IMG/VR virus record: IMGVR_UViG_2654587728_000002
Span: 1-4,213 of that record
DNA: 4,213 bases
Direction: 5' to 3' (one strand)
Source: a virus
Lineage: Duplodnaviria; Heunggongvirae; Uroviricota; Caudoviricetes
Position 1 is the first letter of the stretch. Each line of letters begins with the position of its first letter. Below the pieces are notes generated by a model. The model worked only from the letters and a program-made list of their open reading frames with translations, was not told where the DNA came from and ran no database searches. A program made the translations under genes and the position numbers. Positions 1,646-2,883 of the stretch are shown here, piece by piece.

Positions 1646-2041
1646 ATGACCACTATTACCAAAGAGCGACTGCTGACAATCAAGCAGTGGCGCGAAACAT
1701 ACGGACCGGGTAGCAACGTTGTACTGCCAGCAGAAGAAGCGGAAGAACTGGCACGAATTGCTCTGGCATCGCTGGAAGTCGAGCCGATAGGTTTCCGTTG
1801 CAGGCGCAATGATAACCTTGGTGATTGGAGTTACGTATATCATCGAGAGCCAGATGATTTTGAGCGCAAACATTTAGTGATAGAGGGCATTTACGCCGCC
1901 CCTCCAGCGCAAGTAGTACCGGAAGAAAAACCAATGCCTAATCCTCTTAGCATGTACGCGGTTGATGCTGTTGCCGCTATTGCAGAGGTGAGAGGCTGGA
2001 ACGCCTGCCGTGCCGCTATGCTTCAGGGGAAAGGAGACTGA
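1646..2041 (+). CDS. Hypothetical phage protein, 131 aa; N-terminal module paralogous to the 2251..2883 gene
   Basis: Track ORF. Starts 2 nt after the previous stop. Shares MTTIT(K/R)E and ELARIALASLE(V/A)EP with the 2251 gene. Confidence 0.6.
   Translation: MTTITKERLLTIKQWRETYGPGSNVVLPAEEAEELARIALASLEVEPIGFRCRRNDNLGDWSYVYHREPDDFERKHLVIEGIYAAPPAQVVPEEKPMPNPLSMYAVDAVAAIAEVRGWNACRAAMLQGKGD
1748..1778 (+). repeat. 31-bp direct repeat, copy 1 (2 mismatches to copy 2 at 2419..2449)
   Basis: CTGGCACGAATTGCTCTGGCATCGCTGGAAG versus CTGGCACGAATTGCACTGGCATCACTGGAAG. Both copies encode ELARIALASLE in paralogous genes. Confidence 0.7.
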
Positions 2042-2042
2042 T

Positions 2043-2240
2043 ATGGATAAAAACACCACTGCTTACTGGAATCTGTCACTTGATACCGAATGCCCAAAAT
2101 GCGGTCACAATTTCGATCTGCTTTGTGACGCTGATTTCTGGGAGTTTTCTGGAGCTAAACAGGCATGTGAAGAAATAAAAGGTTACGAAACATGCTGTCC
2201 AGAATGTAACCATGAATTTAAAACAGATTTCGTGTATTGA
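2043..2240 (+). CDS. Small zinc-ribbon protein, 65 aa (CPKCG ... CCPECN)
   Basis: ATG at 2043 inside track ORF 2010..2240, with AAGGAG (2031-2036) 6 nt upstream and 1 nt after the previous stop (TGATATG). Two CxxC pairs about 40 residues apart are typical of a zinc ribbon. It may correspond to a Rac-type small Zn-binding prophage protein, but I cannot verify this. Confidence 0.6.
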   Translation: MDKNTTAYWNLSLDTECPKCGHNFDLLCDADFWEFSGAKQACEEIKGYETCCPECNHEFKTDFVY

Positions 2241-2250
2241 GGCATAACAA

Positions 2251-2883
2251 ATGACCACTATTACCAGAGAACAGGCACAGAAAATTATTGAAGCAGCCGA
2301 TGAGGTTATTAGTGCGCTTGCCGGAACTAACGAGGATGTTCACCCTGGTAGCGATAACATGCTACGCCTGTGGGATGACCTGAATGACCGTTACGCGCCC
2401 CCTGAAGTTGTGCGTGAGCTGGCACGAATTGCACTGGCATCACTGGAAGCAGAGCCTGTAAGCCAAACTTACAACTTGCCAGAATTAATCGAAGGGATGG
2501 AAGTTTCCATTGATGTAAGCACTTGTGATGCTGATTTAGGTAATCGCTATTTCGGTACCGTCACCGAGGCGTTAGAACTTGATACAGCCAAGAATGGTTA
2601 CATCCTCCTAGTTCAGGACGCAGAGCCAAACTTCGATGTAAATGGCAACTCTCCGGTAATTCCGGGCGGTTGGATAAGCTGTAGTGAGCGAATGCCGGAT
2701 AGCAAAACAGCCGTTCTTGTTGCCAGGGAGTTTGACAGGAAAGGTGACTGGCGAATGAAATGGGCGACTTACATCCCGGGGCATCCTGACGCTAATGATG
2801 GGTGGGTAATACCTGGTGCGTCGTGGATACCATCACACTGGATGCCGCTACCAGAACCGCCGCAGGAGGTTAACCATGGCTAA
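2251..2883 (+). CDS. Phage protein with a DUF551-like C-terminal domain, 210 aa
   Basis: Track ORF. The C-terminus GGWISCSERMPD...WVIPGASWIPSHWMPLPEPPQ matches my recollection of the DUF551 signature (W-x-C-SERxP ... HWMPLPEPP). The N-terminal module is paralogous to the 1646 gene. Its stop overlaps the next start (ATGGCTAA). Confidence 0.65.
   Translation: MTTITREQAQKIIEAADEVISALAGTNEDVHPGSDNMLRLWDDLNDRYAPPEVVRELARIALASLEAEPVSQTYNLPELIEGMEVSIDVSTCDADLGNRYFGTVTEALELDTAKNGYILLVQDAEPNFDVNGNSPVIPGGWISCSERMPDSKTAVLVAREFDRKGDWRMKWATYIPGHPDANDGWVIPGASWIPSHWMPLPEPPQEVNHG
2419..2449 (+). repeat. 31-bp direct repeat, copy 2
   Basis: See copy 1. In addition, the first 17 nt of the two genes (ATGACCACTATTACCAA/GA at 1646 and 2251) are near-identical. 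Confidence 0.7.

Follow-up and report, generated by a model that had tools for sequence, protein, structure and literature searches.

Apparent cassette mosaicism at translated junctions in an early DUF551-containing gene family of a lambdoid prophage

Phage tailspikes and tail fibres are mosaic within single genes, and polymorphic toxin loci join a constant N-terminal part to variable C-termini that are exchanged by recombination at a short demarcating motif, i.e., "VENN" in contact-dependent inhibition (CDI) systems and "PxxxxDPxGL" in Rhs proteins. Phage endolysins undergo intragenic domain swaps at linkers, with many resulting architectures (PMC9371310, PMC10630273), and the Ea22 proteins of lambda and Shiga toxin (Stx) phages are mosaics in which a common N-terminal segment precedes unrelated C-terminal domains, one variant carrying DUF551, a "portable domain" (PMC10834534; PMC7093339). 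Lambdoid phages also possess boundary sequences, short conserved stretches of DNA that flank exchangeable segments and have been put forward as guides for homologous recombination (Susskind & Botstein 1978 and Clark et al. 2001, cited in PMC3029335 and PMC2327257). Here, we analysed a 4,213-nucleotide (nt) stretch of Caudoviricetes DNA (IMG/VR record IMGVR_UViG_2654587728_000002, positions 1 to 4,213; hereafter the window), in which two open reading frames (ORFs), gene 1 (1646-2041, + strand, 131 amino acids, aa) and gene 2 (2251-2883, + strand, 210 aa), flank an ORF for a 65-aa Cys-rich, zinc-ribbon-like protein (2043-2240, + strand). The window is the pL-transcribed exo-xis/ea accessory region of a lambdoid prophage, and genes of the exo-xis region modulate lysogenisation and induction (PMC3824215, PMC7093339).

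The same local gene order occurs in phage HK620, where hkaG (Ead/Ea22-like), hkaF and hkaE (DUF551) precede xis and int; by blastn, HK620 is 94.9% identical over 38% of window positions 1400-3200. That same interval is 99.9% identical to the prophage adjoining ybhC in Escherichia coli O127:H6 E2348/69. Phage records name the region homologous to gene 2 EaA or Eaa, and the HK620 record notes that hkaE is similar to 933W L0140 and to P22 eaA; the link to P22 EaA rests on that note together with the EaA/Eaa annotations. From the evidence below, genes 1 and 2 are likely to be neighbouring members of one highly mosaic early accessory family (hkaE/"EaA"/DUF551), whose cassettes would be exchanged by homologous recombination at in-frame junctions.

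Junction motifs and cassettes in genes 1 and 2

A sequence-only reading of the window had proposed that the two genes share an N-terminal module of about 60 residues, carry different C-terminal domains, and reflect domain shuffling in a phage accessory region. Both genes do open with MTTIT(K/R)E (MTTITKE in gene 1, MTTITRE in gene 2) and share ELARIALASLE(V/A)EP, at aa 34-47 in gene 1 and aa 56-69 in gene 2. The near-identity reported for the underlying 31 nt was confirmed: copy 1 (1748-1778; CTGGCACGAATTGCTCTGGCATCGCTGGAAG) and copy 2 (2419-2449; CTGGCACGAATTGCACTGGCATCACTGGAAG) differ at 2/31 positions (GCT/GCA and TCG/TCA), in each case by a synonymous change at the third codon position, and each copy lies in frame, beginning at codon position 1. 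None of 200 dinucleotide-preserving shuffles of the window yielded a second match at three or fewer mismatches. Extended to 60 nt (1726-1785 and 2397-2456), the repeat retains 77% identity, while a second repeat, of 20 nt with one mismatch, lies over both start codons (1646-1665 and 2251-2270). Codons are the same at 9 of the 13 shared residues versus approximately 4.7 expected under typical E. coli usage, a hand count that is suggestive only and is not relied on here.

The proposed module is nonetheless smaller than was thought, the similarity being confined to the two short motifs. In a BLASTP comparison, the alignment is limited to aa 1-48 of gene 1 and aa 1-70 of gene 2 (E = 5e-7, with 22 gap columns), and nothing downstream of these N-termini aligns between the genes. 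The stretches between MTTIT(K/R)E and ELARIALASLE, 26 residues in gene 1 and 48 in gene 2, are no closer to each other than shuffled sequences (z = 1.2, P = 0.14), and homology over the whole N-terminal region was rejected on this basis; the corresponding test gives z = 0.7 downstream of the junction and z = 12 when both motifs are included. The shuffle test thus nearly disposes of the N-terminal module, yet PHROG profiles match both N-termini: phrog_60 aligns with aa 1-107 of gene 1 (E = 9.3e-24) and aa 1-209 of gene 2 (E = 4.6e-55), both matches beginning at profile position 116. What the genes have in common is therefore two short bracketing motifs, MTTIT(K/R)E and ELARIALASLExEP, set around unrelated cassettes.

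To map conservation at the DNA level, window positions 1400-3200 were compared by blastn with 119 loci, and the aligning loci were counted by coordinate. These loci had been retrieved by the ELARIALASLE junction, so that high counts there arise by construction; the other islands are independent of the search pattern. Coverage changes in sharp steps, with alignment ends clustering at island edges. Gene 1 starts with N cassette A, from where junction 1 leads to a beta cassette and junction 2 to a helical cassette; junction 3 comes next, and the gene closes with GKGD and a stop codon. Its first copy of the 5' shared motif (1646-1666, + strand; ATG and MTTITKE, spanning the 20-nt repeat) opens N cassette A (1644-1740, 77 loci), with 69 alignment starts at 1644. 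Junction 1 (ELARIALASLEVEP; 1745-1786, + strand) holds the repeat core at 1748-1778, and alignment ends concentrate at 1776-1788, ahead of a cassette (1788-1890) present in 25 loci. Junction 2, a proline-rich linker (IYAAPPAQVVPEE; 1889-1927, + strand), coincides with a slight rise in coverage and in alignment starts at 1890, and junction 3 (GWNACRAAMLQ; 1994-2026, + strand) forms an island at 1992-2028, with 50 loci versus 26 and 14 on its flanks. Across the zinc-ribbon gene (2043-2232), 6 loci align.

Gene 2 follows a comparable plan, in which N cassette C leads through junction 1 and AEPVSQTYNL to a middle cassette, and the GNSPVxPxGW junction then precedes DUF551 and a conserved C-terminal tail. 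The second copy of the 5' shared motif (2251-2271, + strand; ATG and MTTITRE) lies in an island at 2232-2268 (31-34 loci) that begins near 2232 and includes the ribosome-binding site, and N cassette C (2285-2412) is found in 10 loci. Around the second copy of junction 1 (ELARIALASLEAEP; 2416-2457, + strand; repeat core 2419-2449), 117 alignments start at 2412 and 82 end at 2454, and coverage then drops stepwise over 2454-2484, across the AEPVSQTYNL motif (2449-2478, + strand), into a cassette (2484-2640) held by 20 loci. The next junction (GNSPVIPGGWISCSERMP; 2644-2697, + strand), a proline-rich linker joined to the conserved first strand of DUF551, falls in the GNSPVxPxGWISCSERMP island (2640-2700), with 66-95 loci versus 20-25 on either side. 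The DUF551 core (2700-2832) is common to only 25 of the 119 loci, and the conserved tail (2832-2874) to 72-74; its DNA (SHWMPLPEPPQEV; 2833-2871, + strand) overlaps the start of the ASCH gene (ATG at 2876). As judged by coverage, then, islands of 30-60 nt of conserved DNA alternate along both genes with rare cassettes, those between islands occurring in 6-25 loci except for N cassette A (77).

The same organization extends to the relatives. A first scan of IMG/VR for the exact 31-nt motif, with its two variable positions left free, found at least 119 contigs, the ORFs of which gave 107 distinct proteins; a second scan, for LARIALASLE back-translated with full degeneracy, brought in further relatives, some of them Salmonella-type. 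In the proteins of the first sample, a limited set of cassettes is joined by recurrent peptides. Junction 2 recurs between different cassettes as (V/L)Y(A/T)APP(A/V)PV(V/I)P. Family members thus read as strings of small, apparently unrelated cassettes separated by short conserved in-frame junction peptides, the series being MTTIT(K/R)E (start), ELARIALASLExEP, (V/L)YAAPPxPVVP, GWNACRAAML(Q/H), AEPVSQTY(N/K)L, GNSPVxPDGW(I/V)SCSERMP and THWMPLPEPPQEV (end). The 31-nt repeat is the DNA of the second junction of this series, i.e., junction 1 of the genes as numbered here.

With cassettes defined as clusters at 50% identity, 177 distinct junction-carrying proteins show 70 combinations of 16 N-terminal with 39 first-downstream cassettes. 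Sixty-five cassette quartets occur in all four combinations, the pattern by which the four-gamete criterion recognises recombination. Moreover, a phmmer search (E <= 1e-10) among 1.84 billion cluster representatives placed the 50-aa leader of gene 1 at the head of 439 different 50%-identity clusters; the 150 matches listed are 65-418 aa long, with approximately 80-98% leader identity, and the leader is N-terminal in nearly all of them. The cassettes on either side of the ELARIALASLE junction thus reassort freely among phages. The suggestion of domain shuffling is accordingly supported, and the shuffling is far more extensive than first proposed.

Pfam recognises only two of the cassettes, DUF551 and PF04447 (dATP/dGTP pyrophosphohydrolase), the latter being the sole cassette with a predicted enzymatic activity. 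In other phages, PF04447 (E ~1e-41) stands directly after LARIALASLE (L124, L137, L143, L159, L180, L196, L199, L209 and others) and is followed sometimes by DUF551 and sometimes by a CxxCxGxG-type zinc-finger domain. The gene cluster itself (Ead/Ea22-like genes, small genes, a DUF551 gene and ASCH) is also carried on ~95 kb plasmids of enterohaemorrhagic (EHEC) and Shiga toxin-producing (STEC) E. coli strains and in P1-like phages (H85-H95 and L217, on plasmids of 87-107 kb; H125, phage P7; H141, RCS47), and the leader is found in Yersinia and Klebsiella phage records as well. The cassette pool is therefore common to quite different mobile elements.

The repeats had further been put forward as a substrate for homologous deletion of the intervening gene. 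When 5,426 complete E. coli genomes were searched with a synthetic chimera (1646-1778 joined to 2450-2700), 59 of them matched at least 80% of its length; as a single uninterrupted match at 96-97.6% identity it is present in approximately 50, the count being an estimate beyond the 30 matches listed, among which the exceptions are four E2348/69-type records and two others that match in two pieces. Many chimera matches lie on plasmids of 87-107 kb. Several IMG/VR contigs carry the product too: L093 matches window 1646-1785 (97.9%) and 2416-2873 (94.5%), the two matches overlapping in the junction, and L002, L042 and L104 are similar but with other DUF551 cores. At four chimera loci, three chromosomal and one on a plasmid, the background is not that of the window but a CPS-53-like prophage, prophages in which the cluster adjoins terminase genes, or a 94-kb plasmid, and no isogenic deletion derivative of this prophage was found at these four loci. 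The predicted product is hence common, although the events behind it may have been deletions or insertions, and not necessarily ones in this prophage. The full two-gene arrangement is itself present in 4 of the 5,426 genomes, and fragments of it in 3,162. In U78-type relatives, junction 3 is followed directly by (I/A)(Q/E)PVSQTYNL and the gene 2 middle cassette; set against such single-gene relatives, the window looks as if the insertion of a stop codon, the zinc-ribbon gene and another leader had split a single long gene.

Under the favoured reading, reassortment would take place by homologous or homeologous recombination within the 30-60 nt of junction DNA, either during co-infection or when a phage meets resident prophages. 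A phage single-strand annealing protein would be the likely catalyst; immediately upstream, this prophage has genes for a Rad52/Rad22-type protein, SSB and Abc2. Recombination inside a junction would keep both frame and domain boundaries and would thereby give viable products. Red-type recombinases are able to recombine diverged and short sequences (PMC2327257). We infer that exchange occurs within the boundary sequence by homologous recombination, for which the overlap of the two L093 alignments within the junction provides indirect support.

Several points weigh against this reading. Both locus samples were fetched by the junction itself, so that its ubiquity there is built in. Breakpoints are reconstructed from present-day sequences, and selection acting on random illegitimate joins could also concentrate junctions at domain boundaries. 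Moreover, 31 nt with two mismatches is barely above the usual minimum for efficient RecA-type recombination, and tandem gene pairs are rare (6 of 201 loci). Functional assignment of a cassette is by Pfam name only (PF04447), and the notion of independently folding cassettes derives from composition and reassortment rather than from models, structure predictions being poor.

Gene 1 as a short form, and the alternatives

Besides phrog_60, gene 1 matches phrog_5117, phrog_660 and phrog_3323; it has no Pfam match at E <= 0.1, and hence none to PF04448 (DUF551). Its best relatives match 98-100% of its length at 95-98% identity; most of them reach 197-228 aa and bear a C-terminal PF04448 that lies downstream of the gene 1 stop point. 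They align through ...GWNACRAAMLQ and then either stop (after GKG[DEK]) or run on, by way of additional segments, to ...GW(I)SCSERMP...HWMPLPEPPQEV. Given that relatives at this level of identity mostly carry DUF551, gene 1 belongs to the family of gene 2 as a short form that lacks DUF551. The statement that the two genes carry different C-terminal domains is thus literally true of the two ORFs but misleading.

Gene 1 might instead be a dead remnant, i.e., the 5' part of a DUF551 gene truncated by insertion of the zinc-ribbon gene and a second family gene, with the repeat as a scar. This would fit the longer, DUF551-bearing form of most close relatives, as well as the PGAP annotation of E2348/69, in which only the first 43 codons of gene 1 (L001 9247-9375, equal to window 1646-1774) are marked, as a pseudogene that is "incomplete; missing C-terminus". 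However, the frame is open for 131 codons and ends exactly at junction 3 with GKGD and a stop codon; the ATG of the 65-aa gene lies 1 nt past that stop, after a ribosome-binding site (AAAGGAGA); and independent short forms with other cassettes (P0089, on 41 contigs; P0067, P0075, U6, U28, U89 and U105) terminate likewise, with MLQGKG[DEK] and a stop. Since, in addition, a second type of short-plus-long tandem pair is known, we regard a dead remnant as unlikely. For the same reasons of open frame, recurrent end point with adjoining ribosome-binding site and ATG, and independent short forms, the PGAP call is probably wrong, an annotation artefact of a mosaic family.

The second type of tandem pair (L037 and L104) comprises a 120-aa short form with N cassette B and, 1255 nt downstream, a long form with N cassette A; in both types, the short form, without DUF551, lies upstream and the long form downstream. 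By tblastn, similarity to the gene 1 leader in many phage records (H140-H157) covers residues 1-26 only (MTTITKERLLTIKQWRETYGPGSNVV; 85-100% identity) and is lost thereafter, which points to another possible recurrent breakpoint inside N cassette A.

The junction peptide is subject to a further consideration. In the motif-agnostic sample, LARIALASLE occurs under approximately 30 different DNA encodings (e.g., CTGGCGCGTATCGCGCTGGCATCGCTCGAA 19 times and CTGGCACGGATTGCGCTGGCATCGCTGGAA 17 times), so the peptide is kept across lineages with diverged DNA, while the two window copies share one allele. The peptide is accordingly under protein-level constraint and not only a recombination site, and its retention under many synonymous encodings makes it probable that the junction is a functional helix of the common N-terminal leader. 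AlphaFold2 models of low confidence (mean predicted local distance difference test score 38 for gene 2 and 55 for gene 1, from alignments of 35 and 24 relatives), used cautiously and for secondary structure alone, place the motif within a helix that closes a helical N-terminal region. A PDB sequence search with both proteins returned nothing below E = 0.8.

That the peptide itself is selected would also be expected under plain tandem duplication and divergence, in which genes 1 and 2 are old local paralogs, their motif (e.g., a binding helix) being kept by purifying selection with no role in recombination; the position of both genes in one operon, with starts 605 nt apart, agrees with this. 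We nevertheless find it very unlikely. The window copies share a single DNA allele, 29/31 nt including a rare CGA codon, amid surroundings that cannot be aligned. One N cassette is found with dozens of bodies and vice versa, and reassortment across the junction is incongruent, as the 65 quartets passing the four-gamete test and the 439 clusters with one leader attest. Finally, only 4 E. coli records and a few viral contigs have the tandem arrangement; elsewhere, each gene or the chimera stands alone.

Illegitimate recombination followed by selection (the Hendrix model) would have random joins survive in flexible linkers, such that junction conservation reflects linker function. Several junctions are indeed proline-rich and linker-like (YAAPPAPVVP, GNSPVTPDGW), the discussion section of PMC9371310 proposes illegitimate recombination for the intragenic mosaicism of mycobacteriophage endolysins, and conserved sequences are absent from most phage mosaic boundaries (PMC3029335). 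Random joins should, however, give variable junction peptides and not the same 14 residues with the same codons; the boundaries here carry 30-60 nt of DNA at approximately 88-98% identity, in genes otherwise unrelated on both sides; and the side alignments of the L093 chimera overlap within the junction as homologous exchange predicts. We thus assign this model little probability. Lastly, the notion that the 31-nt repeat acts in cis as DNA or RNA (as a protein-binding site, RNA structure or Chi-like hotspot) and lies in coding sequence by chance is highly improbable and was rejected, for although the repeat holds CTGGCA twice and CTGGAA once and its DNA shows high conservation within the E. 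coli pool, it always lies in one reading frame encoding one peptide, with third codon positions varying freely across phages, while the window has no Chi site or Rfam match and the coding strand of 1646-2883 has no promoter- or terminator-like site, at either copy or elsewhere.

Gene 2, the intervening gene and the prophage context

The DUF551 domain of gene 2 (aa 140-205; 2668-2865, + strand), with its variable core, matches PF04448 over the whole profile at 74.8 bits (cut-off 22; E = 1e-20), which places gene 2 in that family, and a protein identical to gene 2 is encoded on 64 contigs. Its internal junctions recur in other settings: AEPVSQTYNL stands after junction 3 in other relatives (AAML[QH]G-AEPVSQTYKL), and the GNSPVxPxGW junction precedes many different DUF551 cores as well as non-DUF551 C-terminal domains. 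Neither gene 1 nor gene 2 matches PF13935 (Ead/Ea22-like).

As to the intervening gene, a 65-aa Cys-rich gene is present at 2043-2240 and contains two CxxC pairs, but its zinc-ribbon-type matches are weak (Rad50 zinc hook, E = 4e-4; YnfU family, E = 6e-4; NCBIfam, sub-threshold). It is rare (6 of 119 related loci) and aligns with positions 162-224 of the 323 in phrog_4173; because this profile is far longer than the gene, the gene may represent part of a longer mosaic protein, either a fragment or a cassette. In P0001, L075 and L164, a zinc-ribbon ORF (MKTFTIDWLNKCRCGNKSH...CNSCGRGG...) upstream reads in frame, with no stop, into an MTTITKE leader, giving proteins of 198-342 aa that could be true fusions or ORF-calling artefacts.

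In E2348/69, the prophage order is CI/Cro/CII-type regulators, a Rad52/Rad22-family annealing protein, an HNH endonuclease, SSB, Abc2, the genes of the window, xis and int, a lambdoid layout. Within the window, small genes assigned from Pfam and PHROG are all on the + strand: abc2 (85-381), a small ORF (393-559; DUF2737 family according to the E2348/69 annotation), an 89-aa gene (556-825), an Ead/Ea22-like gene (812-1450; PF13935, E = 2.1e-22) and a 63-aa gene resembling hkaF of HK620 (1452-1643) precede gene 1, while the ASCH gene (2876-3160), a 55-aa gene (3233-3400), xis (3440-3658) and the 5' part of int (ORF from 3636) follow gene 2. Genes 1 and 2 therefore sit in an unbroken + strand gene run; window order and the E2348/69 annotation both place them in the pL operon, between the Ead/Ea22-like gene and xis/int.

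The int gene is truncated by the end of an IS3-family (insertion sequence) element of the IS1203/IS629-like type (3946-4213), which is 95-98% identical to copies in thousands of E. coli records. In the otherwise near-identical E2348/69 prophage, int is intact (1071 nt), and hence the window is from a different strain or variant; its prophage is probably unable to excise normally. Two hairpins followed by T runs, resembling intrinsic terminators, lie upstream of xis, at 3162-3192 (after the ASCH gene) and 3390-3417 (after the 55-aa gene). Upstream of gene 1, a 40-nt island at 1416-1458, which spans the boundary where the Ead/Ea22-like gene ends and the hkaF-like gene starts, aligns with 102 of the 119 loci, against 13 in the Ead/Ea22-like gene body (1400-1415) and 16 in the hkaF-like gene body (1460-1640), and is a classic conserved gene-boundary sequence. 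A motif, GGAGGCA(A/G)CCAGTGAG, is found at two successive gene junctions (545-560 and 801-816), where stop and GTG start codons overlap.

Comparison with known systems

HkaE of HK620, its translation compared by eye, consists of an MTTITKE start, N cassette B, the junction as VARIALASLGAEP, the gene 2 middle cassette and a near-identical DUF551. In HK620 there is a single such gene, whereas the window has two with the zinc-ribbon gene between; HkaE uses N cassette B, the window N cassettes A and C, with gene 1 lacking DUF551. Mosaicism of this region, hkaE/eaA, the boundary-sequence idea and endolysin intragenic swapping (PMC9371310) are all already known. In the searchable literature, including papers that mention DUF551, we found no description of a multi-junction translated combinatorial architecture with a common leader, or of the short and DUF551 forms as one family; the 2001 HK620 paper is outside that coverage. 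Annotation obscures this single family, with short forms called pseudogenes and long forms named by their last domain (DUF551).

The likeness to polymorphic toxin loci is formal, an analogy only: family proteins are small and belong to the early phage genes, with no secretion apparatus found. For genes 1 and 2 and their neighbours, searches of Pfam, NCBIfam and PADLOC gave no toxin, immunity or defence match. The proteins are early-expressed and are present in Stx-converting phages and in prophages of enteropathogenic E. coli (EPEC) and EHEC. From the architecture and the PF04447 cassette, a weakly supported guess would be that cassettes are independent host-directed effector modules on a common leader, diversifying under host conflict. 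In a more specific form, the family would be the phage counterpart of polymorphic effector loci: the constant leader (MTTITKE ... ELARIALASLEAEP) would dock a common host or phage partner and present interchangeable cassettes, among them the dATP/dGTP pyrophosphohydrolase, zinc-finger domains and DUF551 variants, with junctions kept partly for in-frame exchange by a phage annealing recombinase. The peptide of the putative leader helix is retained in phages of Escherichia, Salmonella, Klebsiella and Yersinia, as well as in P1-like plasmid prophages. We put this reading forward only tentatively, as unlikely; if true, it would be a natural, testable form of the Susskind-Botstein linker model inside genes.

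Published accounts of Ea22, which shares its genome region with genes 1 and 2, describe three variants and not a multi-junction combinatorial pattern. Relative to the boundary-sequence model, the window has such sequences at gene junctions (1416-1458; 545-560 and 801-816) and at intragenic junctions, with conserved DNA at the edges of unrelated segments and independent assortment across the boundary, as that model holds. The difference is that most junctions here lie within one reading frame, are translated and peptide-constrained, and number up to six or seven per gene.

This bears on the debate over phage mosaicism, i.e., homologous recombination at conserved linkers versus random illegitimate joins filtered by selection. 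The family offers an unusually dense and clean junction set, with up to seven in one small non-essential gene and hundreds of natural combinations. Since the junctions are translated, their DNA homology could be removed by synonymous recoding with the protein unchanged, making the question directly testable. In mycobacteriophage endolysins, the joins have been ascribed to illegitimate recombination that involves no conserved junction DNA (PMC9371310), whereas the junctions of this family are conserved in both DNA and peptide.

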